NCBI GenBank assembly: GCA_965243285.1
Contig: OZ251537.1
Location: 570,387 to 634,386 of the forward strand
Length of the DNA stretch: 64,000 nucleotides
Source of the DNA: Candidatus Poriferihabitaceae bacterium
GTDB taxonomy: Bacteria > Pseudomonadota > Gammaproteobacteria > Arenicellales > Poriferihabitantaceae
Direction: 5' to 3'
The notes under the pieces were generated by a model, which ran no database searches, was not told the origin of the DNA, and worked only from the letters and a program-made list of their open reading frames with translations. The number at the start of each line of letters is the position of its first letter. Position 1 is the first letter of the stretch. Positions 2,133 to 28,665 of this stretch are shown here, in pieces. A program made the translations under genes and the position numbers.

Positions 2133-2459
2133 ATGAATTTCTTTATTTCAGACGCTTGGGCGCAAAGCGAAGGCCTTTTCGGCGGCGGCCTAATCGGGTT
2201 ATTACCCATGGTGTTGATTTTCGTCATCTTCTATCTGCTGCTCATCCGCCCGCAGCAAAAACGCGCCAAACAACACAAACAAATGGTCGCCGAACTCGCC
2301 AAGGGCGATGAGATCGTCACCAACGGCGGCGCCTTAGGCAAAATCACCGCCGTAGACGACAATTTCGTCACCGTGGAAATCGCCGAGAGCGTGAAAATCA
2401 AAGTCCAACGCAGCGCCGTTGCCCAACTGATGCCCAAGGGGACGATTAAGTCGAAGTAA
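2133..2459 (+). CDS. yajC: preprotein translocase subunit YajC
   Basis: 108 aa. Single TM followed by IRPQQKRAKQHKQM and KGDEIVTNGGALGKI..., the canonical YajC layout. Confidence 0.9.
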   Translation: MNFFISDAWAQSEGLFGGGLIGLLPMVLIFVIFYLLLIRPQQKRAKQHKQMVAELAKGDEIVTNGGALGKITAVDDNFVTVEIAESVKIKVQRSAVAQLMPKGTIKSK

Positions 2460-2483
2460 GCGGCCGCTCGGCCGCATTATTTT
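2460..2483 (+). terminator. candidate rho-independent terminator after yajC
   Basis: GCGGCC-GCTC-GGCCGC hairpin followed by ATTATTTT. Confidence 0.45.
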
Positions 2484-2537
2484 GGGCAAGCCAGACGCTA
2501 CCCGCCCGCTGTTGCAGCACTAACGCCCCCATCCCGC

Positions 2538-3680
2538 ATGCTGATTATTTCCAGGCTGAGGCTGCAAAATTGGCGCAACTTCGAGGAAGTCGATATACGC
2601 CTGCGCGAGCGGGTGTTCATCGTCGGCGCCAACGCATCCGGTAAATCCAACCTACTGGACGCGATACGCTTTCTGCGAGATCTAGCCCGGAACGGCGGCG
2701 GGTTGATTCCCGCCACCCGAAGTCGCGGCGGCCTCAGCAAGGTGCGCTGTTTGGCGGCGCGGCGGAAACCCCATGTCATGTTAGAGGTCGAAATAAGCGA
2801 GAGCGCATCGGCCACCGATGAATGGGTGGAAAAATGGACTTACCACCTTGCGTTTAATCAAACCGGCGGCGGCATTCGCCAAACCAAACCGATTATCCAA
2901 GCGGAGCGCATCACCGCCGCTGGCGATGAGCTGCTTAACACCACGCCCGGCCAATCGCACACCAGCATCGAACAACCAGGCATGTTGAAAAATGGACTGC
3001 TCGAATTACGAGAATTTTTGAGCAGCATCACCTACCAGCATCTGGTGCCGCAGTTGTTGCGTTATCCACACCTTTTTTTGGACGCCAATCAGGGCGAAGA
3101 TCATTTTGGCCGCGCCTTCCTCGAAAGCATCAATCGCATCAACAAAAACACGCGCGCCTCGCATTTAAAAAAAATCCAGGAAGTGCTCGGCAAGTTCATC
3201 CCGATGTTAGACGAGCTAACATTAGGAAAAGATACGCAAGGACAGCCGCACCTGCAGACTCGCTACCGCCACTGGCGGTCGCGAGGCGACTTTCAACATG
3301 AAGATCAATTTTCCGACGGCACCTTGCGCTTGATAGGTTTCATGTGGTCTATCTTAGACGGCAGCCACCCGCTATTGTTGGAGGAGCCGGAATTATCGTT
3401 GCACCCAGCCCTGGTGCGCGCCCTGCCCGAAGCGATAGCAAAACTCCAAAAACGCCAGGATGGCAAGCGGCAAGTTATCCTCACTACGCACAGCCCCGAC
3501 ATGCTCAGCAATCGCGGCATCGCCCTGGAGGAAATCGTATTGCTAAAGACCGGCGAGAGCACCCAAGCAAAGCTAGCCAGTAATGTGAAAGAAGCGCGGG
3601 ATTTGCTGGAAGTCGACGCCACCCCAGCGGAGATAGTGGAGCAACAATTAGATGCTCCACAAAGTTCATCGATCTTTTAA
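2538..3680 (+). CDS. ABC/AAA-type ATPase (RecF/OLD-like, AAA_15/21-like)
   Basis: Walker A GANASGKSN; signature-like FSDGTLRLIG; Walker B LLLEEPELSLHP; H-loop TTHSP. N-terminus MLIISRLRLQNWRNF is typical of SMC/OLD-type ATPases. Confidence 0.75.
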   Translation: MLIISRLRLQNWRNFEEVDIRLRERVFIVGANASGKSNLLDAIRFLRDLARNGGGLIPATRSRGGLSKVRCLAARRKPHVMLEVEISESASATDEWVEKWTYHLAFNQTGGGIRQTKPIIQAERITAAGDELLNTTPGQSHTSIEQPGMLKNGLLELREFLSSITYQHLVPQLLRYPHLFLDANQGEDHFGRAFLESINRINKNTRASHLKKIQEVLGKFIPMLDELTLGKDTQGQPHLQTRYRHWRSRGDFQHEDQFSDGTLRLIGFMWSILDGSHPLLLEEPELSLHPALVRALPEAIAKLQKRQDGKRQVILTTHSPDMLSNRGIALEEIVLLKTGESTQAKLASNVKEARDLLEVDATPAEIVEQQLDAPQSSSIF

Positions 3681-3714
3681 ATAACTTGTTTTAGAATTTT
3701 TTTATAGCTAGCGG

Positions 3715-4314
3715 ATGATGTACTTATGCTTCGTGGAGGATGAATTGCATGAAGCATTAGTGTTGCGGGTATGTGACTATTTAAATCGTCAAGCGCCGAA
3801 AATTTTTATTAAAAAAGGCAAGACCAAACTCATCGACAAAACCCAGGTTCGCAAATTAAATCGCGATAACAACAACCAGCAGTTTTTTATGGTGGTGGAT
3901 CTTGATAATGACTCAGCCTGCGCAGCGGCGGAAAAACGCCGCCTATTAAATGGCGACACGCCATCCCCGGCGCTAAAAATCATCATCGCAGTGCGCGCCG
4001 CCGAAGCATGGCTGTTAGCCGACCGCCATGAATTGGCGACCTATCTCGGCGTCGCGCTAAAACATCTGCCGCAACGCCCGGAAGGCGAAACCAAGCCGAA
4101 AGAGACGCTCATCAATATCGCCAGGAAAAGTCGAAATCGGCATATTAAAACGGCCCTCGTGCCGATAACGGACACCGCCAAACAAGGCCCCGAATACAAC
4201 ACCCAAATCGCCGACTATGTGCGCGACCGCTGGAACCTAGAGGCCGCCAAAAACAACGCCGCTAGTTTGATTTATTTGTGCCGAATATTGACGGAAAACC
4301 TGCCAAAATCGTGA
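3715..4314 (+). CDS. DUF4276-like small protein (possible Toprim-like partner of the upstream ATPase)
   Basis: 199 aa, starting 35 bp after the ATPase stop. N-terminal acidic FVEDELHE, central VVDLDND, and AVRAAEAWLLADRHEL recalled as the DUF4276 pattern. Family assignment is from memory and not verified. Confidence 0.5.
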   Translation: MMYLCFVEDELHEALVLRVCDYLNRQAPKIFIKKGKTKLIDKTQVRKLNRDNNNQQFFMVVDLDNDSACAAAEKRRLLNGDTPSPALKIIIAVRAAEAWLLADRHELATYLGVALKHLPQRPEGETKPKETLINIARKSRNRHIKTALVPITDTAKQGPEYNTQIADYVRDRWNLEAAKNNAASLIYLCRILTENLPKS

Positions 4315-4371
4315 AGCAAGCGCGCTCCGCCAACGCCGTCCAGCGGGGAAATCGTTTATTCCTCGTCTATA

Positions 4372-5454
4372 TTACTTATTAGATTTTCGGCGGTTGCATT
4401 CCTTGCACAGCATTTGGCAATTTTCTTCGCTGGTTTTACCGCCTTCTGACCATGGCGTTACATGGTCGCCTTCCATATTATCTATGACGAACTGTTTTTT
4501 GCATTTTGGGCAATTCCCTTGTTGTTTTTCATACACTTTTTGTTTCATAGAATCGGTAAACGCCCGAAGGGACAGATGTTTTTCATCACGGGTTAAAATA
4601 TACGGATAAATGCCGCTAAGTTTTTTTACATCATCATCGGCGATCAATTTAGCGGTTTCTTTTTCTATCGCCTCTGGATCATGTTTTTTATCATGGCATT
4701 GGCGATATAGCGTTCCCCAATCCACCCCCTTCATGGGCTTTCTATAGGTAGTAAAAATCGCCTCCACCCATTCGATAACATCATTAAAATAGCCCCATAA
4801 TTCCAGGGCATTGTCATCGTGCTGGTGTTCGCCCATATAGGATTCTATTTTCCCATCGGACAGCCATTTGATAGCCGTTTCTAAATATTCTTGGCGAGAT
4901 GCGGCGCCTTTCAAATATTTTCCACCATTATCTTGAGCGGGGCAGTTGCTTTTACTAAAATAGGTTTTCGCATGAGTCACCCAAGAGCCTGAATAAACTG
5001 CATTTCTTAATTCTTGGTTTGTGAGTTCTTCGCCCGCTATATTAATCGTCTTAAACCAATTCAGTTTTTCGCTATCGGTTCCGCTACAAAAATAAACCAT
5101 CAATTTGTAGTTGAGAATTCCGACTTTCTCGTCATTTTGCAGGTTATGAAAACTTCTATCTTCAAAAGAAAATTTACGATTGACATACTGGCAAATCGAA
5201 ATAGTTCGCTGCTGTCCATCAATGATTTCATAATCGCCATCCTCCCGAACCGCCCAATACATAACATTGAGCGGGAAATCATTGATGACGGTGTTTATAA
5301 CAGCGTCTCTTTGTTTGCCGGTATAAATAAATTCGCGTTGATAGGGCGGGCGAATATCTAGCTTGCCACCATACCCGACCACGCCATCATCACCGCTGTC
5401 CTTATATCCGGCAACCAAATCTTTAACCGAAATTGCCTTTAGTTTGATTTTCAT
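4372..5454 (-). CDS. DUF262 (ParB-like/GmrSD N-terminal) + C-terminal HNH nuclease
   Basis: DGQQRTISI motif of DUF262. C-terminal CPKC...GDHVTPWSEGGKTSEENCQMLCKECNRRK is an HNH/zinc-ribbon. Start taken at MKIKLKAISV (5454), which overlaps the upstream MTase stop as ATGA. Confidence 0.8.
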   Translation of the reverse strand: MKIKLKAISVKDLVAGYKDSGDDGVVGYGGKLDIRPPYQREFIYTGKQRDAVINTVINDFPLNVMYWAVREDGDYEIIDGQQRTISICQYVNRKFSFEDRSFHNLQNDEKVGILNYKLMVYFCSGTDSEKLNWFKTINIAGEELTNQELRNAVYSGSWVTHAKTYFSKSNCPAQDNGGKYLKGAASRQEYLETAIKWLSDGKIESYMGEHQHDDNALELWGYFNDVIEWVEAIFTTYRKPMKGVDWGTLYRQCHDKKHDPEAIEKETAKLIADDDVKKLSGIYPYILTRDEKHLSLRAFTDSMKQKVYEKQQGNCPKCKKQFVIDNMEGDHVTPWSEGGKTSEENCQMLCKECNRRKSNK

Positions 5455-5711
5455 AGCATTTTGTTTTTGATGATAATGCGCCTGTATTTTGGCTTGCCAT
5501 TTATATCGGGGCCGCGACCTCGCCATTTAGGATATTCCATCCTATGGTCGTCCATCCCCAAGATATCAAATTGCTCGTGGTTGTATTTATCCATAAAACT
5601 AATGGGCACCCCCATAGCCCCTTTATAGTCCTTAGGGATGTATTCTGTTTTATCGACATTGATAGCGTCGTAGTTGTCATATTTTTGGTATTCCTCTCGA
5701 CTATATTTTCT
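5451..5711 (-). pseudogene. C-terminal fragment of an M.EcoRI-family N6-adenine DNA methyltransferase
   Basis: ...YSREEYQKYDNYDAINVDKTEYIPKDYKGAMGVPISFMDKYNHEQFDILG...KYRRIIIKNKML parallels the M.EcoRI C-terminus (SSYPKYDNYDAINVNKTKDIPLDYNGVMGVPITFLHKFNPEQFELI...YFRILIKNKRLQK). The upstream part is replaced by MITE sequence at 5712. Confidence 0.85.
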
Positions 5712-5912
5712 GGGGGGAGTCAAATCAGGCGGCTTTATCGCCTGATTTGGTGGGGGGCTGTTGATGTTGGTCTTTTTGTTTTTGGCTTTTAAATCTTCAA
5801 CTCATTAGCATTAATGAGGGGCAAGGTAAAAAGCAACAGCCAAGTCAAAAGCGAAAAGCCAAAACCAACCCCAACCCCAAACCCACCGTGCAGATTTAGG
5901 TATATAAATCCC
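5712..5912 (-). mobile_element. MITE half-copy (left arm with left TIR), truncated at an internal hairpin
   Basis: In reverse complement it starts GGGATTTATATACCTAAATCTGCACGGTGGG and ends ...CCTGATTTGACTCCCCCC. The outer flank at 5913-5920 is CTTAATTT when read in element orientation. Confidence 0.85.
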
Positions 5913-5948
5913 AAATTAAGCGTGTTATCCAAAATATTGCTACATTGA

Positions 5949-6215
5949 TTAGGGTTTAGCCATTTCTTTTGTGCCAGTAGGAATGGTGGAATTAAAAGAC
6001 GCAATCATATAACTCATGCTATCTTTTAATTTCACCAACTCGCCGTCGCTGAAAACACCGCCACGATTTATTTTAATGGCTAAATCGGGAAACATGCCCT
6101 TGCTCCTACACGACAGTAAACTGGTTTTATACGGGAATTTTTCAAGATTTTTTAAATCGCCAAAGTGCTTTTTTTGGGCGATTAAATCGGCAAAAAAATG
6201 GTAAATGGAATACAT
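5949..6215 (-). pseudogene. degraded ORF downstream of the PF01555-type MTase (possible cognate endonuclease remnant)
   Basis: About 89-aa ORF starting 12 bp after the MTase stop, AT-rich. It terminates about 35 bp before the MITE. Readable continuations exist only in other frames. The function call is inference from gene position. Confidence 0.3.
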
Positions 6216-6227
6216 GGCAATCAACCC

Positions 6228-7120
6228 TCAAGCGCTAAGAATATCCAGCGGCATGGGCGCGCCCCATATTATTTTTAATCCAGGGGTAAACACATAGTCA
6301 TTATAATAATCGCCAACGCAATCTCCGGCGCAGATATCATGCAGACGCGATTTTATGCACGCTACATTTTTTTTATCCAACTCAATGCCAATGTATTTGC
6401 GCCCGAGTTGTTTGGCTACGGTTAATGTAGTGCCTGTGCCGGCGAATGAATCTAACACTATATTATTATACTTAGATGACGATAAAATAATTCTCAACAG
6501 CAACGCAACTGGCGCCTGTTGTTTGTGAAACCGCGCGCCATCGGTTTGGCGAATGGCCTCTTTGCCGGCGAAAAACCCAGAAGTCAACTCTCTTATATCA
6601 TCCCAAACATCGGTCACGAAAATTCCATTTTCGCGTTTGAATTTATAATTCGCTGGCGGTTCTGGGTTTATTCGCAACCGATTAAAAATATTTGCCTTTG
6701 CGCCCTTGGTTGCATACACGATTACTTGATATTGCTTGCCGAATTTGCACGCCACCGGCACCGCTGAAGTTTTCTTTCGCCAAATAATTAAATTTTGGAA
6801 AGTCCAACCGGTTTCGCGCAATATGGTCATCACAAATTCAGCATTTTTTCGCGCTGCATAAAATAAATCGCGCCACCTGCCGTTGTGCAAGCGTAAATAT
6901 GTTGGCAAACATCCCGCATCATCCGCCCGTATTTTTCATCCTCCATTGCATCGTCATGCTTGGCATATTCCTGGCCTTGATTAAAGGGCGGGTCCATAAA
7001 AGTCAAGCCGATTTGATTGGCCGGCAACTGTTGCAGTCGGTCGCGACAATCGCCCAAATAAATCATGTCGGGGCGGAAGGTATCAAGATTTTTTATATTT
7101 TTCACGGGCCGATTTTTCAT
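6228..7120 (-). pseudogene. DNA methyltransferase (N4/N6, PF01555-like) with a frameshift in a homopolymer
   Basis: N-terminal part MKNRPVKN...LTFMDPPFNQG (motif IV) is in one frame (ends 6830). The rest, ...NAEFVMTILRETGW...LDSFAGTGTTLTVA (motif I), is in another. The frames meet at the T6 run 6844-6849. Confidence 0.75.
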
Positions 7121-7294
7121 GGCGGTTGCTGGAGGTATGTCGGCATGGAAAGCGGCCATACTACCATTAAAACCGCCCGAACGCATAAAACAGACATATA
7201 CAATGTATCCGTAATCATGCATGCGAATGGCGGCCGAATAAACCCGCGCAGCGCATCGATAATGATACCATTGCCGGCGATGGCGACTATAAAA

Positions 7295-8380
7295 ATGATC
7301 CGCGAAACCCGCGAGCTGGCCGAATTCATCGCCGCCGCCACGGCCAGCGGGTGGGCCGCGATGGACACCGAATTTTTGCGCGAGCGCACCTATTCGCCGG
7401 AGTTGTGCCTCATCCAAATCGCCCATGCGGACGCGGCGGCGTGTATCGACCCGCAGGCGGTGGAGGATTTATCGCCGCTCGGCGCGTTGTTGGCCAACCC
7501 CGCCGTGGTCAAAATTTTTCATTCTTGTCGGCAAGATCTCGAGGCCTTGGATACGCGCATGCCGTTGTGCGCCGCGGCGGTGTACGACACCCAGTTGGCG
7601 GCGGCGTTTTGCGGCTACGGCAGCCAAGCGAGCTACGCGGCGCTGGTGGCGGCGGTGTGCGCGGTGCATTTGCCGAAAACCCATACCCGCACCGACTGGA
7701 GTCGCCGCCCGCTATCGGCGGCGCAGTTGCAATACGCTATGGACGATGTCAAATATTTAGCGCCGTTGCGCCGCCACCTCGATGAGCTGCTAGCGCAACA
7801 CGGCCGCCAGCAGTGGCATCGCGATGAATGCGTCGCCGCCGCGCACCCAGCCAACTATCGCCCCGCTGCGGACCCATGGCAACGCTTGAAGGGCCTCGGC
7901 CGCCTCGATACCATGGGCCGCGCTTGCGCCCAGCGGCTAACCGGCTGGCGCGAGCAAAAAGCCCGCGACTGCAACCGACCGCGCGGCTGGATTCTGCCCA
8001 CACCGGCGCTGTTGGCAGTCTGCCGCCAGCGTCCGCGCACCATGGCTATGCTGGCGGAGGTCGACGATCTCAGCCCGGGCATCGTCAAAAACTCGGGGCG
8101 AGACATTTTGAACCTAGTCGAGCGCAGCGCCGCCGATGGTGGCGAAATGCGCGATGATTCCAGCACTCGGCCTGAACCGCTGAGCGCGGAACAACGCCAC
8201 CGCGTGAAAAAAATCATGGACTTGCTGGCGCGCCGGGCGGCGGAGACCGACATCAGCCAAGCGTTATTCGCCAACCGCCGCGAGGTCGAAAACTTCGTGC
8301 GCGGTGATTCCGAGCAGCCATTATTCCACGGCTGGCGCGCCCAACTGGCCGGCGATGAAATTCGCGCCGAGTATTCGTAG
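7295..8380 (+). CDS. rnd: ribonuclease D
   Basis: MIRETRELAEFI...AMDTEFLRERTYSPELCLIQIA (ExoI), HSCRQDLEAL and YAMDDVKYL are DEDDy motifs. Start chosen by alignment logic with E. coli Rnd; the longer ORF upstream overlaps the opposite-strand MTase. Confidence 0.85.
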   Translation: MIRETRELAEFIAAATASGWAAMDTEFLRERTYSPELCLIQIAHADAAACIDPQAVEDLSPLGALLANPAVVKIFHSCRQDLEALDTRMPLCAAAVYDTQLAAAFCGYGSQASYAALVAAVCAVHLPKTHTRTDWSRRPLSAAQLQYAMDDVKYLAPLRRHLDELLAQHGRQQWHRDECVAAAHPANYRPAADPWQRLKGLGRLDTMGRACAQRLTGWREQKARDCNRPRGWILPTPALLAVCRQRPRTMAMLAEVDDLSPGIVKNSGRDILNLVERSAADGGEMRDDSSTRPEPLSAEQRHRVKKIMDLLARRAAETDISQALFANRREVENFVRGDSEQPLFHGWRAQLAGDEIRAEYS

Positions 8381-8640: not shown

Positions 8641-9198
8641 ATGTCAGCGCCCAGCGTCATCATCCTATCCGCGCCTTCCGGAGCCGGCAAAACCAGCCTA
8701 ACGCGAAAATTGGTCGCGCGACGGCCGGATGCGGCGGTGGTGGTTTCCCACACTACCCGCCCGCGGCGCGTTGCCGAAAAAGACGGCGTGGATTATTGCT
8801 TTGTCGACAAAGCGCGCTTCGAAGCGATGATCGCCGAGCGCAGTTTCATCGAATACGCCACCGTGTTCGGTCACTATTACGGCACTTCAGCGCAGGCGAT
8901 AGATGCGCTGATTTCCCGCGGCAAGCATGCTATTTTGGATATCGACTGGCAGGGCGCGCGCGCCGTGCGTCGCCAATATCCCCATGCCCAATCGGTGTTT
9001 GTCATGCCGCCTTCTCTTGGGGTGTTGGAACAACGCCTAAAATCCCGCCGCCAAGACGCCGACGAGGTCATCGCCGGACGCATGCGCGCCGCGCTGGACG
9101 AGATGAACCACCGCAACGAGTATGATCATGTCATCATCAATGATCGATTCGAGCGCGCCCTGGAAAATCTTGAAGCCATCCTGCCGGCGAATGGATGA
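8641..9198 (+). CDS. gmk: guanylate kinase
   Basis: P-loop [11 protein letters not shown], plus HTTRPRR and [12 protein letters not shown] motifs. Confidence 0.9.
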
Positions 9199-9283
9199 TG
9201 GTGCCGATTTATCGATAATGTTTAGCGATAATATTTATCGATGTTTTTTAATGTTTGATAATTTCAATTCCAGGAGAATCAAC

Positions 9284-9745
9284 ATGGCTCGCGTAACCGT
9301 GACTGACTGCTTAGCGCATGTCGACAATCGCTTTCAACTGGTGTTAGTCGCCTCCAAACGGGCGCGGCAACTGATCCTCGGCGCCGAGCCGCTGGTCGAG
9401 AGCAACCGCGATAAACCCACAGTGCTGGCATTGCGTGAAATCGCCGCCGGCCTGGTCGGGCCCTCCATCCTCGATGAGAAACCCATCGTCCCCGAATTGA
9501 GTTTCGACAACGACGAGGAATGGAATGAAAAACTGAATGATGAATTGATCAGTAAATTGAGCGACGAGCTGGAGAATCAACTGGACGACGAGCCGAACGC
9601 CGACGCCGATGCCGACGCCGATGCCGACGCCGATGCCGATGCCGACGCGGAAAGCCACCCGCCGCGCGGCGCATCGCTTGCGGACGATGCCGACCCATCC
9701 ACCGAAACCGCGGCCGCGGGCGAGCCGCCGTTAAGCCGCCGATGA
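9284..9745 (+). CDS. rpoZ: RNA polymerase omega subunit with long acidic C-terminal extension
   Basis: [30 protein letters not shown] is canonical RpoZ. GGAG-containing RBS upstream. gmk-rpoZ-spoT synteny. Confidence 0.9.
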
Positions 9746-12062: not shown

Positions 12063-12088
12063 CGGAAATTATCAATAGGCTAATTAAT

Positions 12089-12831
12089 GGGATTTATATA
12101 TCTAAATCCGCACGGTGGGTTTGCTTTTGATTTTGGCTTTTGCTTTTGCTTTTGCTTTTGGCTTTTGGCTGTTGATCTTCACTCCCCCCGCTTCATCATG
12201 AGGGGGAGTCAAAACTGGCATCTTTTTCGCCAGTTTTGGTGGGGGGTTTTGATCTGGCTTTCGCTTTTGATGTTGATTTTCGCTTTTCGCTTTTGATTTT
12301 GGCTTTTGCTTTTTTGTTTTTGCCTTTAAATCTTCAACTCATTAGACCAAATGAGGGCAAGTAAAAATCAAAAGCGAAGTCAAAAGCGAAGTCAAAAGCG
12401 AAAAGCAACAGTCCCCCCACCAAATCAGGCGATAAGGCCGCCTGATTTGACTCCCCCCAGATGAAGCACGGGGGGGAGTAAAGCGTTAAAAGCCAAAGCC
12501 AAAAGCAAAAGCCAAAGCAAAAGCCAAAGCCAAAAGCAAAAGCAAAAGCCAAAGCAAAAGCAAAATCAAAAGCTAACATCAAAAGCCAAATCAAAAGCTA
12601 ACATCAAAAGCTAACATCAAAAGCACCCCCCACCAAAACTGGCGATGTAGCCGCCAGTTTTGGCTCCCCCCTAAAAAGATAGGGTGGAGCGAAGCCTTAA
12701 CAGCAACAGCAAAAGCAAAAATCAAAATCAAACGCCAAAATCAAAAGCAAAAATCAAACGCAGCCGCCCTAAATCAGTCGCTGACCTCAAAAAAACGCCA
12801 ATCGAACTGCAGATTTAGGTATATAAACCCC
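12089..12831 (+). mobile_element. full-length MITE-like element (743 bp)
   Basis: Left TIR GGGATTTATATATCTAAATCCGCACGGTGGG. Right end ...CCCTAAATCAGTCGCTGACCTCAAAAAAACGCCAATCGAACTGCAGATTTAGGTATATAAACCCC. T-rich GCTTTT arm, central TTAAATCTTCAACTCATTAG module and A-rich AAAAGC arm. No ORF of coding quality. Confidence 0.85.
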
Positions 12832-13109
12832 AAAACAAAAGCCAAAGCCAAAGCCAAAAAGCAAAAGCCAAGTCAAAATCAAAAGGCCCCCCACCAAAAC
12901 TGGCGAAAAAGCCGCCAGTTTTGACTCCCCCCAGATGAAGCACGGGGGGGAGTAAAGCGTTAAAAACCAAAGCCAAAGCCAAAGCCAAAGCCAAAACCAA
13001 AACCAAAGCCAAAACCCAAAGCAAAAATCAAAGCCAAAGCAAAAATCCAAAAAACAAAATCGCCCCCCCAATAGCAACCTACCAATGGGGATTTAGGTAT
13101 ATAACTCCC
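12832..13109 (+). repeat. MITE-related fragment with variant right end, abutting the previous element
   Basis: AAAAGC-type arm plus a hairpin module, ending ...TAGCAACCTACCAATGGGGATTTAGGTATATAACTCCC. No left TIR. Confidence 0.7.
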
Positions 13110-13139
13110 TAAATTTTCATGGCGGTCTTGCATGAATAA

Positions 13140-19543: not shown

Positions 19544-19590
19544 GGGCGTTATATACCTAAATCCGCACGCGCGGTTTGCTTTATCCGCAT
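19544..19590 (+). repeat. solo MITE left-end remnant
   Basis: GGGCGTTATATACCTAAATCCGCACGCGCGGTTTGCTTT resembles the left TIR plus the start of an arm. No partner end. Confidence 0.55.
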
Positions 19591-19768
19591 CGACTGCCCG
19601 GTCCGCATCACTAAAAATAAAACTTAAAAGATTAACTAAACCACCATGGCAACCCGACGGAAAACACCACCCCATTTAAGCGGATTTAAGCCAGCAACTC
19701 CCCTGAATTAAAGCATGCCAAATTTTTAACCACGCCATTGTTGCATCGACTTATATAACGCAAAAGAA

Positions 19769-19843
19769 TGGATTTATATATCTAAATCAGCCGCTGACCT
19801 CAAAAAAACGCCCATCGAACTGCAGATTTAGGACTATAAATCC
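19769..19843 (+). mobile_element. 75-bp minimal MITE derivative
   Basis: TGGATTTATATATCTAAATC joined directly to AGCCGCTGACCTCAAAAAAACGCCCATCGAACTGCAGATTTAGGACTATAAATCC. Flanked by identical GCAAAAGAA at 19760-19768 and 19844-19852. Confidence 0.8.
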
Positions 19844-20079
19844 GCAAAAGAACATGGTTTTAATCGACCGTGGCGATGCGGTTTTAAGCGGCGCTGCTGG
19901 GCGGTGATGGTTACGCCGGATGAAACGATGCCGATTTTTCGCTTGCCGGCTAGTGCCATGGCGGCCCAATCACATCGACCATCGCCATCATCGCCATTCA
20001 CCAACCCGGCATTTCCTGCGCCATTCGAAGCAGCGGCGGCATTATACAATACGCCGAGCCGCCGCTTAAATATCAGCCC

Positions 20080-22752: not shown

Positions 22753-23488
22753 ATGACATCGCAAAACCAAAACCTCAGAAAAGCGAAAAAAGCCAAAAGT
22801 GATGAGTTTTATACTCAACTCGCTGATATTTAAAAAGAATTAAATCACTATGAAAGTCACTTTGCCGGCAAGGTGGTGTATTGCAATTGCGACGACCCCG
22901 CGCGAGTAAATTTTTTCATTATTTTTCATACAACTTTGAACATTTGAAACTTAAAAAACTGGTTACGACCTGCTATAAAAGCCAACATCGTGATTTATTA
23001 AGTAAGCATGATTCAGAAAAAGCAATTTACTTGCACTATGATGGATTTAAGAAAGGGGAAGTGGTGCCAGACCCAGAGGATATTGGCATAAACCATTTGG
23101 AAAGCGACGGCGACTTCCGCAGTGATGAATGTATCGAGTTGTTAAAACAAGTCGATATTGTGGTTACTAACCCGCCGTTTTCACTGTTCCGCGAATATGT
23201 CGCCCAGCTGATTGAACATAATAAAAAATTTCTAATTATAGGAAATATGAATGCTGTAACCTATAAGGAAATTTTTAATTTAATTAAACAAAATAAATGC
23301 TGGTTCGGGCCGAGTATCCACAGTGGGGATAGAGAATTTGGAGTTCCCAATGAGTACCCGCTAAACGCCGCCAATAGTAGGGTTGATGATAATGGCAACA
23401 AATACATTAGAGTCAAAGGAGTTCGTTGGTTTACAAATTTAGACTATAAAGAGCGCCACGAAAATTTATTCCTTTATAAAAAAAGTAA
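22753..23488 (+). pseudogene. N-terminal ~245 codons of an M.EcoRI-family N6-adenine DNA methyltransferase (nonsense + frameshift + truncation)
   Basis: MTSQNQNLRKAKKAKSDEFYTQLADI-TAA(22831)-KELNHYESHFAGKVVYCNCDDPARVNFF, frame change in the T6 run 22911-22916, then HYFSYNFEHLKLKKLVTTCY...DIVVTNPPFSLFREY...WFTNLD...LFLYKK. Collinear with M.EcoRI (AKKSKSDEFYTQ..VVYCNCDDPRVSNFFKYFAVNF..GLKKLIASCY..IVVTNPPFSLFREY). Fused to MITE sequence at 23489. Confidence 0.85.
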
Positions 23489-23617
23489 GGGGGAGTAAAA
23501 CGTTAAAAGCAAAAGCAAAAGCCCAAAAGCAAAAACAAAAATCAACCGCAACCCCCTAACTCAGCCGCTGACCTCAAAAACCGCCAATCTAACTGCAGAT
23601 TTAGGTATATAAATCCC
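23489..23617 (+). mobile_element. MITE half-copy (right arm with right TIR)
   Basis: Starts GGGGGAGTAAAACGTTAAAAGC and ends ...CTCAGCCGCTGACCTCAAAAACCGCCAATCTAACTGCAGATTTAGGTATATAAATCCC. The outer flank at 23618-23625 is CTTAATTT. Confidence 0.85.
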
Positions 23618-23817
23618 CTTAATTTCATTGTGCCGTTGCACATCTGATGCAGATGAGGAACTTATTTATGAAAAAGCACGGTTAATTTTTGATAACAATC
23701 ATTTTGCCGAGATAAAAAAACTTAAAATAAAACATCATTTTAACGGCTGGTTTTGTGTCTTCCAAGTCGGTCTATGAACAACCCGCTCATCCATCCACCC
23801 GACCAGGCTATAAAAAC

Positions 23818-24369
23818 ATGACCGATATAAGAATCGCGCTGCGCTGGTTGCTGGCCTTGTGCTTGTTTCGGGCAAAACCTCAAGACGCGCCGGCGGCGGC
23901 GGCGTGGTTGGCGGCCGGAGTGGCGGTGTCGTGGCTGGGGTTTGCGGTAGGTGATGCGTTGTTGTCCAGCGCTATGAATGTGGTGGTGCTGGCGACGGCG
24001 CAGACCGCATTGCTGGGCGGCGGGTGGTGGGTGGTGTTGGCGCTGTCTAAAAAAGGTACGCGCTGGCTGCAGTCGGCGACGGCGTTATTCGGGGCGTGCG
24101 CGTTGACGCATGTTTTTGCGGTGCCGGTGATTGAGTGGATTTCGCGCAGCGCGCAGCCGCTGGAGCTGTTATCCGCCGGGGTGTTGTTGTTGGCGGTGCG
24201 ATTGTGGTTTTTCGCCATCATCGTGCATATTATGAAAGATACTTTGGAAATTTCCACCGGGCGCGCCATCGTAACCGCGCTGGCGTTGCATCTTTTTATC
24301 GGCTTGGCGCTGCTTTCTGTGTTCATCAACCCGGGGGACATCAGCCCGGGGGACATCAGCGGCGGTTGA
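23818..24369 (+). CDS. hypothetical multi-pass membrane protein
   Basis: About 183 aa from MTDIRIAL with 4-5 hydrophobic helices and a C-terminal NPGDISPGDISGG duplication. No recognisable family. Confidence 0.45.
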   Translation: MTDIRIALRWLLALCLFRAKPQDAPAAAAWLAAGVAVSWLGFAVGDALLSSAMNVVVLATAQTALLGGGWWVVLALSKKGTRWLQSATALFGACALTHVFAVPVIEWISRSAQPLELLSAGVLLLAVRLWFFAIIVHIMKDTLEISTGRAIVTALALHLFIGLALLSVFINPGDISPGDISGG

Positions 24370-24545
24370 TTTGGCTGTTGCTGTTAAGGCTTTGCTCCAC
24401 CCTATCTTTTTAGGGGGGAGCCAAAACTGGCGGCTTCATCGCCAGTTTTGGTGGGGGGTGCTTTTGATTTAGCTTTTGATTTGGCTTTTGATTTAGCTTT
24501 TGGCTTTCGCTTTCGCTTTTGACTTTTCGCTTTTGATTTAAAATG
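24370..24545. repeat. TIR-less cluster of MITE-type modules (hairpin + GCTTTT arm)
   Basis: GCTCCACCCTATCTTTTTAGGGGGGAGCCAAAACTGGCGGCTTCATCGCCAGTTTTGGTGGGGGG followed by GCTTTTGATTT-type repeats. Confidence 0.75.
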
Positions 24546-24568
24546 TTTTGCCAGGGCTATTTTGGGCT

Positions 24569-25390: not shown

Positions 25391-25401
25391 GGCGGCTCAT
25401 G

Positions 25402-25935
25402 TTAAAGAAAAAGCGAAAAGCAACAGCAAAATCGACATTAAAAGCAACATCAAAATCAACAACCAAAGCGAAGTCTAAAGCGAAATCTAAAGCTAAGTCT
25501 AAAGCGAAATCTAAAGCTAAGTCAAAAGCGAAAAGCAACAGCCCCCCACCAAATCAGCCCGAGTCTATCGGCTCGGGCTGATTTGACTCCCCCCAGATGA
25601 AGCGGGGGAGTAAAACAAAAGCCAAAGCCAAAAGCGAAAAGAAAAATTAAAAGCAACAGCAACAGCAACATCAACATCAAAAGCAACCCCTCCCCACCAA
25701 AACTGGCTAAAAGACGCCAGTTTTGACTCCCCGCCCAGCGGGGAGTCAAGAAAAAGCCCAAAAGCGAAAATCAAAATCAAAAACGAAAGCACCCCCCACC
25801 AAAACTGGCGATGAAACCGCCAGTTTTGGCTCCCCCCTAAAAAGATAGGGTGGAACAAAGCCTTGAACAGCCACAGCAAAAGCGAAAGCAAAAGCCAAAA
25901 ACCAAAATCAACAGCCAAAGCAAAAAACCAAAATC
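25402..25935. repeat. cluster of MITE-type modules (several hairpins, AAAAGC arms), no TIR
   Basis: At least three G6/C6-flanked hairpins (25545-25590, 25677-25725, 25793-25835) embedded in AAAAGC-type microsatellite. Confidence 0.75.
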
Positions 25936-25939
25936 AAAG

Positions 25940-26045
25940 GCCACCAAATTTACTGCCCATCGGCCCGAATCCGACTCGAATCCGGCCAAATTCCCCCGAA
26001 TCCGGCCTGAATCCACCCAAATCCACCCAAATCTGCCTAACTCCG
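25940..26045. repeat. phased A/T-tract array
   Basis: CCGAATCCGACTCGAATCCGGCCAAATTCCCCCGAATCCGGCCTGAATCCACCCAAATCCACCCAAATCTGCC. Confidence 0.65.
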
Positions 26046-27844: not shown

Positions 27845-28168
<324 letters not shown>

Positions 28169-28306
28169 TTTCGCCTTTGAGTCTTCACTCCCCCCCTGCT
28201 TTTTTCGAGGGGGAGTGAAACGTTAAAAGCCAAAGCCAAAGCCAACATCACCCCCACCGAGTAGCAACCTCTGCTGGGGATTTAGGTATAGGCCTGCCAA
28301 ATTAAA

Positions 28307-28665
28307 AGTGGGAGCCGGCCGATAAGCCGGGTTCTGTCGAGGACAGTCATTCATCTGCGGCATTCGTCGCCGAATGCCTCGAGCGACCTACCCGGACCCG
28401 TAGACGAGGGCGGCGCCGTGGGTCCCTATTCGGTCTTGCTCCAGGCGGGGTTTGCCATGCCGCCGCTGTTGCCAGCGACGCGGTGCGCTCTTACCGCACC
28501 ATTTCACCCTTACCCCCACCTTGTCGACTCGGGGCGGTATATTTTCTGTGGCACTTTCCGTCGGCTCGCGCCGCCCAGGAATTACCTGGCACCTTGCCCA
28601 ATGGAGCCCGGACTTTCCTCCTCGTTAGGCGTGGCCTAACGAAGCGACTGCCTGGCCGACTCCCG
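28307..28665 (-). ncRNA. rnpB: RNase P RNA, bacterial type A
   Basis: The reverse complement contains GGAGGAAAGTCCGGGCTCCATTGGGCAAGGTGCCAGGTAA, ...GGGTAAGGGTGAAATGGTGCGGTAAGAGCGCACC, ...ACAGAACCCGGCTTATCGGCCGGCTCCC. It is collinear with E. coli M1 RNA, including P1 pairing of GGGAGTCGGCC with GGCCGGCTCCC. Confidence 0.92.

Follow-up and report, generated by a model that had tools for sequence, protein, structure and literature searches.

A divergent HEC-01-type ABC ATPase and Toprim-like gene pair, a candidate anti-phage module at the yajC 3' flank of a Candidatus Poriferihabitaceae bacterium

The 3' flank of the yajC gene was analyzed in a 64,000-nucleotide stretch of DNA (referred to as the window) of Candidatus Poriferihabitaceae bacterium (GenBank assembly GCA_965243285.1, contig OZ251537.1, positions 570,387 to 634,386 of the forward strand). 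A preliminary description of this DNA had reported, right after yajC, two open reading frames (ORFs) of 380 and 199 amino acids lying about 35 bp apart and had proposed an OLD/PARIS-like defense pair of an ATP-binding cassette (ABC) ATPase and a DUF4276-like, possibly Toprim-type protein. Both ORFs were found, 34 nt apart, and the predicted masses of their products were 43 kDa for the ATPase and 23 kDa for the small protein. The latter would be shortened to 198 amino acids if the second ATG (3718) were the start, and the public gene call (P0001) has this length. Based on the profile matches given below, the pair was placed, as a divergent representative, in the candidate family named HEC-01 (Hma-embedded candidate 1 of PADLOC-DB v2; Payne et al., bioRxiv 10.1101/2024.01.29.577857), which answers the question, left open earlier, of whether this exact pairing corresponds to a named system. 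The family was defined as an ABC ATPase together with a TOPRIM-like protein carrying an OLD-like metal site (bioRxiv 10.1101/2024.01.29.577857). The features of the locus are collected in Table 1.

The ATPase matched the PADLOC model HEC-01A (PDLC04180) over its full length, with residues 3-375 aligned on profile positions 2-374 of 382 (2.8e-119). The Pfam families AAA_21 (1.2e-32, 114.7 bits, cutoff 27) and AAA_15 (2e-19, 70.9 bits, cutoff 32.1) were also detected, and the N-terminus gave short Pfam matches to SMC_N, AAA_23 and AAA_29. The PADLOC models of AriA, AbiLi, GajA, Old and mad3 matched at 1e-21 to 1e-32 with partial coverage of the protein, and in NCBIfam no above-cutoff match was obtained for either the ATPase or the small protein. 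The nearest solved ATPases were GajA, PtuA, retron Ec83 and TsOLD, all of them defense ATPases, and an ABC fold has been stated for HEC-01A (Payne et al., bioRxiv 10.1101/2024.01.29.577857).

The conservation of the ATPase was assessed by aligning it with 76 genomic homologs (n=77). The three motifs named in the preliminary description, G30-ANASGKSN-38, L279-LLEEPE-285 and T316-THSP-320, were present, and the catalytic core to which they belong was conserved in the homologs. The Walker A consensus of the family was GxNASGKSN, R63 was also invariant or nearly so, and the Walker B motif led into an S-L-H D-loop region. Judging from this alignment, the Walker B glutamate, where the canonical residue is aspartate, is a trait of the whole family and not a lesion. 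The 380-residue ATPase presumably acts as the sensor or regulator subunit of the pair.

The small protein aligned along its full length with the PADLOC model HEC-01B (PDLC04194; 3.6e-44, residues 5-194 on profile positions 8-196 of 204), and 12 of its 12 PADLOC matches were HEC-01 models. Its match to Pfam DUF4276 (PF14103) reached 18.8 bits (E 0.0021) and stayed under the 30.2-bit gathering threshold. Of 65 relatives, however, 53 matched the same family at E<=0.01 (best 1.3e-8), and the small-protein family was therefore placed as a peripheral DUF4276 branch. The motifs F6-VEDE-10, V60-VDLDND-66 and A95-AEAWLLAD-103, which had likewise been pointed out, were all present, and their residues E8, D62, D64, E97, W99 and D103 were invariant or nearly so. 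Among 65 small proteins, the invariant positions were E8, D62-L-D64, C69, W99, L100, D103, K129 and W173, while E97, R94 and R137 were conserved in at least 90%. The acidic residues of the E97-D103 helix may help to bind metal, and a conserved metal-binding site common to HEC-01B and BpOLD has been described (Payne et al., bioRxiv 10.1101/2024.01.29.577857).

The suggestion that the small protein has a Toprim-like fold was followed up by structure prediction and Foldseek searches. An AlphaFold2 model built from a 65-sequence alignment (predicted local distance difference test score 88.6, predicted template modeling score 0.84) showed the order beta1 (3-7)-E8-alpha (10-22)-beta2 (29-32)-alpha (42-51)-beta3 (56-62)-DxD-alpha (70-78)-beta4 (87-93)-E97, followed by a helical C-terminal domain; the Toprim-like N-terminal domain is predicted to comprise residues 1 to ~105. 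A Toprim domain is recognized by a glutamate after strand 1, a DxD motif after strand 3 and a beta2-beta1-beta3-beta4 alpha/beta fold (PMC12065111), and in the model E8 follows beta1 and D62-L-D64 ends beta3, as this signature demands along the chain. In the Foldseek search against the PDB, ranks 1-5 were taken by the Toprim regions of the OLD structures 6nk8, 6njx, 6njv and 6njw, which belong to class 2, the Gabija type (review PMC10568477), but the best of these matches was weak (E 0.016, prob 0.92; template modeling (TM) scores 0.40-0.49). PARIS 8ux9 was sixth (prob 0.25) and the Toprim domain of RNase M5 26th. The best structural match in BFVD, also weak (E 0.24, TM 0.42), was an RloB-like viral protein. 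A Toprim fold of the modeled small protein is well supported by the topology, the catalytic residues and the literature taken together, whereas the structural statistics alone would lend it weak support. The 199-residue protein is presumably the nuclease effector.

Further, the relationship between the two genes was examined across genomes. The best identity to any homolog was 49% for the ATPase and 39% for the small protein. A word-based search recovered 14 relatives of the small protein and a profile search 2,167, and an exhaustive hidden Markov model search of 1.84 billion cluster representatives gave 2,896 clusters at E<=1e-3, including 1,373 at E<=1e-30. Nearly all members of this HEC-01B/DUF4276 branch (~2,900 clusters at 50% identity) were standalone proteins of ~200 residues. 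A scan of the GTDB species representatives, in which the genome of the window was not recovered, yielded 80 loci from Acidobacteriota, Chloroflexota, Planctomycetota, Bacteroidota, Desulfobacterota, Pseudomonadota, Verrucomicrobiota and other phyla, a distribution that was patchy and without synteny. In 77 of the 80 loci, the gene immediately upstream and on the same strand coded for a homolog of the ATPase (phmmer 1e-57 to 1e-110). In the remaining three, the ATPase was frameshifted (L066), the locus ended at a contig edge (L055), or the small gene was a truncated orphan fragment in an archaeal metagenome-assembled genome (MAG; L060). With L066 counted and L055 dropped, the loci that could be evaluated numbered 79, and in 78 of them the ATPase was immediately upstream; the same arrangement was seen in seven metagenomic contexts (L001-L007). 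The pairwise identities of the two proteins correlated over 77 loci (Pearson 0.82, Mantel p ~0.001), and the coefficient was 0.56 when only pairs with less than 60% ATPase identity were taken. Such a correlation is expected for a co-inherited and co-evolving unit, which the two genes are by these comparisons, and their pairing across genomes is essentially obligate.

To describe the surroundings of homologous pairs, 1,321 flanking ORFs from 83 loci were clustered. No third gene conserved beside the pair was found among them, and conserved partner genes were lacking in more than 70% of the loci, which makes the pair autonomous as a rule. A Type III restriction helicase (ResIII; PADLOC REase_III) was located 4 bp 3' of the pair in 10 of the 83 loci, a Type III methylase (PADLOC MTase_III 2.1e-23) overlapped the upstream side of the pair in 7, a SNF2+NOV_C helicase was a neighbor in 4, and a DUF1156 (Hma-type) methylase stood beside the pair in 3. 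In ~10 genomes (L005-L007, L074 and ~6 others), the pair was nested in a Type III operon, with the mod gene on one side and the res gene on the other. Overall, the pair was nested in methylation-based systems in roughly 12-25% of cases, and it was this 'embedded' pattern that had led to the discovery of HEC-01 (Payne et al., bioRxiv 10.1101/2024.01.29.577857). It was also observed that locus L003 contained two tandem ATPase and small-partner pairs (3972-7643) after a SNF2/NOV_C helicase, the first HEC-01-like and the second composed of AAA_15/AAA_21 and DUF3226 proteins.

Table 1. Coordinates of the features at the yajC 3' flank (window numbering; the last row uses the numbering of the respective loci).
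Feature	Coordinates	Strand	Evidence or remark
yajC	2133..2459	+	Pfam YajC 3.9e-33
Intrinsic-terminator-like hairpin and T-run	2460..2485	+	Directly 3' of the yajC stop; splits yajC from the ATPase gene
HEC-01A-type ABC ATPase (AAA_21/AAA_15), 380 aa	2538..3680	+	ORF list; Pfam; PADLOC
Walker A/P-loop G30-A-N-A-S-G-K36-S-N38	2625..2651	+	G30, N32, A33, G35, K36, S37, N38 in 76/77 homologs
Most divergent ATPase stretch, ~residues 125-155, including a 3-residue deletion	2910..3002	+	9/18 deviations at >=90% columns
ABC signature-like motif F258-S-D-G-T-L-R264	3309..3329	+	>=90% conserved; R264 77/77, T262 76/77
Walker B L280-L-E282-E283-P-E285	3375..3392	+	E283, P284, E285 77/77; E282 >=90%
H-loop histidine H318 (T-T-H-S-P)	3489..3491	+	H in 76/77 homologs
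AT-rich intergenic spacer, 34 nt	3681..3714	+	Sequence
HEC-01B-type small protein, 199 aa	3715..4314	+	ORF list; PADLOC; AlphaFold2 model
Predicted Toprim catalytic Glu E8, right after beta1	3736..3738	+	Invariant in 65-sequence alignments; 62/63 aligned genome copies
Predicted Toprim DxD D62-L-D64, end of beta3	3898..3906	+	D62 81/81, D64 74/81 genome copies (rest N)
E97-A-W99-L-L-A-D103-R104 helix after beta4	4003..4026	+	E97 87/87, W99 87/87, D103 86/87
DUF262 (GmrSD_N)+HNH nuclease, convergent to the pair	4372..5526	-	GmrSD_N 5e-18, HNH 2.8e-17
EcoRI-like methylase, C-terminal fragment (last 89 aa)	5451..5723	-	EcoRI_methylase 1.1e-24, profile 248-345/345
Host dispersed repeat inside the island	5701-5925		Copy at the exact truncation point of the EcoRI-like methylase
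N6_N4 methylase, C-terminal frame	6228..6908	-	N6_N4_Mtase 1.9e-31, profile 57-218/221
N6_N4 methylase, N-terminal frame with DPPF	~6830..7120	-	In ORF 6830..7426, likely start ~7120
yajC-secD gap in relatives	L088 10346-17924; L089 10586-13345; L090 10324-11531		Tyrosine recombinase and variable cargo

We proposed that the pair probably serves in anti-phage defense as a split OLD-like machine, in which an ATPase sensor gates a Toprim nuclease effector; this proposal is drawn by analogy with characterized systems. In such an HEC-01-type module, the ATPase and the Toprim-fold nuclease would be made as separate proteins, and the ATPase would oligomerize and keep the nuclease inactive, by analogy with OLD, Gabija and PARIS. 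A phage-derived cue, either a protein of the phage or nucleic acid of aberrant structure, would alter ATP binding or hydrolysis in the ATPase, and the altered state would release or activate the Toprim subunit. The latter would then cut nucleic acid by two-metal chemistry and thereby halt the replication of the phage, a response in which the cell itself may be sacrificed. Since ~12% of the relatives lay inside Type III restriction-modification (R-M) operons and the nearest structures were DNA-cutting OLD Toprim regions, we lean slightly towards DNA as the substrate of HEC-01B, with tRNA nearly as likely. Among Toprim effectors, AriB and, in vivo, P2 OLD act on tRNA, and class 1 and 2 OLD proteins cut DNA in vitro (PMC10568477).

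Several observations weigh against this proposal. The ATPase of the window was the most deviant of the 77 sequences, departing at 18 of 100 columns that were at least 90% conserved (median 2), and the small protein was the second most deviant of its family, with departures at 10 of 42 conserved columns (median 0). Six of the latter were private changes (G32I, A51D, A52N, P56Q, R90I and R187Y); at position 90, arginine occurred in 81 of 87 copies and isoleucine in the window. Relaxed constraint could be the cause of such deviations. The terminator scan placed a stem-loop GCGGCCG-CTC-GGCCGC at 2460-2475 (6 G-C pairs, loop 4, tail ATTATTTTGG), the ATPase gene started 62 nt downstream of this terminator, and within these 62 nt, up to the ATG at 2538, neither a sigma-70-like promoter (promoter scan) nor a clear Shine-Dalgarno ribosome-binding site was detected. 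A 34-nt spacer separated the two genes here, whereas they abutted or overlapped in most homologous loci (gap estimates, 83 loci). Foldseek gave no PDB match of the small protein at E<=0.001, and the profile of its family found no solved Toprim among the PDB sequences; a match to RpoZ (E 0.69) in the latter search was rejected as spurious. The R-M genes adjoining the pair were decayed. Finally, the two published phage tests of the family, one negative and one positive, disagree, as the HEC-01 representative of the discoverers gave no protection in E. coli (bioRxiv 10.1101/2024.01.29.577857), and one HEC-01 cluster, in a cold-seep study, reportedly shielded E. coli B from one or more of the phages T4, T5 and T7 (bioRxiv 10.1101/2024.09.26.614923, PMC12881386).

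Part of these data would also be accounted for by the main rival explanation, in which the pair started as an accessory module within a bigger system built on methylation (Type III R-M, Hma or MADS-like) and, after the destruction of this system, would be an orphaned or decaying remnant, either non-functional or drifting. The departures from conserved residues (R90I and other private changes among them) and the promoter that was not found upstream of the ATPase would fit such an origin, as would the ~10 of 83 loci in which the pair lies between a Type III methylase and a restriction helicase and the 3 others with a DUF1156 methylase beside it. The methylases next to the window pair were truncated or frameshifted and the region was invaded by a host repeat; moreover, MAD3 and MAD4, which are both required for MADS defense, work only within the 8-gene MADS operon. 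However, both ORFs were intact and covered their profiles in full length, and the catalytic residues were all kept (K36, E282/E283, the signature motif, H318, E8, D62xD64 and E97). The deviations of the ATPase were concentrated at residues 125-155 and 338-379, non-catalytic insert and C-terminal regions, and HEC ATPases in general vary most in their inserts and C-terminal extension (Payne et al., bioRxiv 10.1101/2024.01.29.577857); the stretch of residues ~125-155 is a possible sensor or partner-contact insert. The substitutions G9D, D12H and W57F of the small protein recurred in a sub-clade, and the pair is normally autonomous, as described above. The pattern of deviations fits a long-branch lineage that would still be functional, and the remnant explanation was considered unlikely.

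The base composition also argued against a common origin of the pair and the R-M remnants. The GC content and the GC content at third codon positions (GC3) were 0.544 and 0.64 for the ATPase gene and 0.497 and 0.585 for the small gene, against 0.40-0.44 and 0.41-0.45 for the nuclease and methylase remnants; the host genes had a GC3 of 0.67-0.80. Given these differences and the convergent orientation of the two blocks, the pair was probably acquired independently of the R-M remnants. The AT-richer island mentioned in the preliminary description was therefore real but mosaic, with the pair itself only moderately GC-poor.

As for the function of the divergence, it can be imagined that the sensor surface of this lineage was re-tuned for a different phage trigger and that HEC-01B is, more broadly, a trigger-released tRNase and not a DNase, a combined proposal that we hold to be doubtful.

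The rest of the island corresponded to the earlier account of a DUF262-HNH nuclease and two decayed R-M systems. The GmrSD_N+HNH gene was intact and of full length (PADLOC REase_II PDLC03418, 1.2e-132, alignment from residue 24), and its likely true start was M25 at 5454, overlapping the stop of the upstream EcoRI-like methylase. Since the nuclease was intact and this methylase was reduced to 89 residues, the restriction-type nuclease appears to have lost its apparent cognate methylase, and the orphan enzyme may be modification-dependent (GmrSD-like), inactive, or shielded by another methylase. The N6_N4 methylase, read in two frames, is either a frameshifted pseudogene or the product of a sequencing error. 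The island was followed by rnd (~7280-8380, DNA_pol_A_exo1 and HRDC), gmk, rpoZ and spoT. The rpoZ-like ORF (9122-9745, +) had a long acidic C-terminal extension, in which an (Asp-Ala)n run corresponds to tandemly repeated GACGCC/GATGCC units at 9584-9643.

The repeat invading the island belonged to a dispersed composite family with copies at 5701-5925, 12087-13120, 19544-19856, 23486-23630, 24366-24550, 25400-25970 and 28060-28310. Its parts were a G6/C6-capped hairpin (GGGGGGAGTCAAAWCWGGCG-N6-CGCCWGWTTTGGTGGGGGG), an (AAAAGC/AAAGCC)n tract with 12-nt periodicity and the end motif CTGCAGATTTAGGTATATAAATCCC. The family explains the low-GC, high-AT-skew patches of the window, and it looks like a miniature inverted-repeat transposable element (MITE) or a repetitive extragenic palindromic (REP) element. 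Around the HEC-01 pair itself, neither att-like sites nor bounding repeats, direct or inverted, were found. A further low-GC ORF of 205 residues at 22881-23498 (+), with an NPPF motif and a match to PADLOC MTase_II (2.4e-68, profile 51-242/332), was truncated and stopped at the repeat copy 23486-23630. On the other side of yajC, an NYN-domain gene was observed at 475-1320 (+; Pfam 3.9e-25, PADLOC NYN 3.8e-9, GC 0.515), the product of which had a C-terminal tail resembling a cold-shock domain. It formed an insertion between the acyl-CoA ligase gene and the HAD gene, two genes that follow each other directly in the relatives L089 and L090, and it is possibly a second small acquired gene of defense type.

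The context of yajC was compared with that in related genomes. The proteins of the source contig were singletons in the cluster database, and the named YajC relatives at 73-79% identity were Gammaproteobacteria or Pseudomonadota MAGs. The three closest YajC relatives (L088, L089 and L090; 82-86%, on contigs of up to 2.8 Mb) shared the upstream order acyl-CoA ligase, HAD, yajC. On the 3' side of yajC, a tyrosine recombinase gene came first, in some cases accompanied by cargo, and secD-secF-nrdR-ribD came next, in agreement with the earlier remark that the pair occupies the position of secDF. The cargo in L088 comprised an HKD+Snf2 defense-type protein (PADLOC C3a139, 2.7e-109), a sigma-70-like protein and an AAA_16 protein, and that in L089 an HTH (helix-turn-helix) protein. 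In L090, ~45 nt past yajC resembled the 5' end of the HKD+Snf2 gene of L088 (ATTCTCGATAAC...AAACCAGC), a resemblance suggestive of a remnant left by a deletion. The HEC-01 pair was not present at the yajC locus of these three relatives. Only the ligase, HAD and yajC genes were common to them and the window, and neither secD, secF nor a recombinase was found anywhere in the 64 kb. With a recombinase and variable cargo in the relatives, the position of the pair is a variable and horizontally acquired spot for integration. The 3' flank of yajC is a lineage-specific hotspot of integration and defense, and the source genome is additionally rearranged there. The points on which the preliminary description had made its proposal depend thus turned out in its favor: the small protein was Toprim-like, it co-occurred with the ATPase, and the locus varied among relatives.

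A mobile and variable location would also suit a selfish addiction or stabilization module, in which a nuclease toxin restrained by the ATPase would mainly stabilize the island instead of acting against phage. The Pfam description of AAA_21 ties the domain to AbiEii and type IV toxin-antitoxin systems, and in the related MADS system mad5 could not be deleted unless mad2 or mad3 was removed, which points to ATPase-dependent self-toxicity. Nevertheless, a family-profile scan of 2.9 million viral contigs found no relatives, and neither an integrase nor another mobility gene was linked to the pair in the window. The phage protection reportedly conferred by one HEC-01 representative also speaks for defense. 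Abortive-infection defense and addiction can coexist, which makes for a weak alternative, and we consider addiction as the role of the pair highly unlikely.

A housekeeping function, in repairing DNA or maintaining the chromosome, comparable to that of the archaeal OLD-family ATPase Cran1 or of RecF/Rad50-type ABC ATPases, was regarded as the least probable of the explanations, to be given hardly any weight. Its starting points are that the N-terminus of the ATPase matched SMC_N, RecF and Rad50 profiles and that Cran1 reportedly exemplifies a non-defense role of an OLD-family protein (PMC12796447). These matches, however, were confined to the P-loop residues 4-46 and remained far under the family cutoffs, the absence of the pair at this locus in the three closest relatives is at odds with such a role, and so are its patchy distribution over phyla without synteny and its frequent nesting in R-M systems.

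If the proposed defense module is active, it would be a divergent and compact addition to the ABC-ATPase/Toprim immune machines, coming from a large HEC-01/DUF4276 branch. The near-obligate pairing, the co-evolution and the recurrent nesting between Type III mod and res offer handles for studying the class. Should HEC-01B be a trigger-released tRNase, the large DUF4276 branch would come under the paradigm of AriB and P2 OLD. In the source genome, the stretch 3' of yajC stands out as a hotspot of defense and integration. The pair itself is a sound but fairly ordinary defense-island find, as the HEC-01 family had already been catalogued.

The pair was finally compared with known systems. AbiL, composed of the AbiLi ATPase and the RloB-like Toprim protein AbiLii, is likewise a two-gene abortive-infection pair that joins an ABC ATPase with a Toprim-like protein, and AbiL and MADS3-4 were named in the PARIS paper as further ABC ATPase and TOPRIM systems. 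The AbiLi match of the window ATPase was partial (1.1e-25, profile 50-262/326), and the small protein matched neither RloB (Pfam) nor AbiLii (PADLOC). In MADS, MAD3 is an AAA_15/21-type ATPase and MAD4 a DUF4276 homolog, and the ATPase had weak matches to mad3/MAD3 (PADLOC 1.8e-22; NCBIfam 2e-18). The NCBIfam MAD3 match (NF047739) scored 66.8 bits against a cutoff of 420, no mad4 match was obtained, and the mandatory MAD6-8 and an intact methylase were not adjacent, the neighbors being yajC and the convergent DUF262-HNH gene.

The OLD classes 1-3 (P2 Old, TsOLD, GajA and the retron Eco8 effector) share with the pair the ABC ATPase and the Toprim site of a glutamate and a DxD motif, and the best, albeit weak, structural matches of the small protein were the Toprim regions of BpOLD and XccOLD. 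In OLD proteins both domains are fused in ~530-600 residues (review PMC10568477), whereas in the window they are divided between two ORFs by a stop codon and the spacer. The Old and GajA PADLOC matches were partial, no Toprim_OLD Pfam match was found for the small protein, and neither a UvrD-like GajB nor a reverse transcriptase was found near the pair (ORF list, Pfam). PARIS resembles the pair in its split layout, in that an ABC ATPase of the AAA_15/21 group and a Toprim nuclease are encoded by separate adjacent genes, the ATPase is likely a sensor that controls the Toprim effector, and AriA and AriB also co-evolve. In contrast, AriA and AriB have ~55 and 35 kDa, compared with 380 and 199 residues here, and PARIS is often satellite-borne, whereas no relatives were found on the viral contigs. 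The AriA models covered only residues 168-323 (8.7e-32) and 255-323 (3.2e-21) of the ATPase, and the small protein had no DUF4435 (Pfam) or AriB (PADLOC) match at E<=0.01. The earlier designation as an OLD/PARIS-like pair was hence retained for the split ATPase/Toprim architecture and dropped for membership in either system. The closest agreement was with HEC-01. The window pair differs from it in lying outside any Hma system and in having spaced instead of abutting genes; it agrees in the order of an ATPase gene followed by a small Toprim-like gene on the same strand, and in the metal-binding acidic residues, which were kept.

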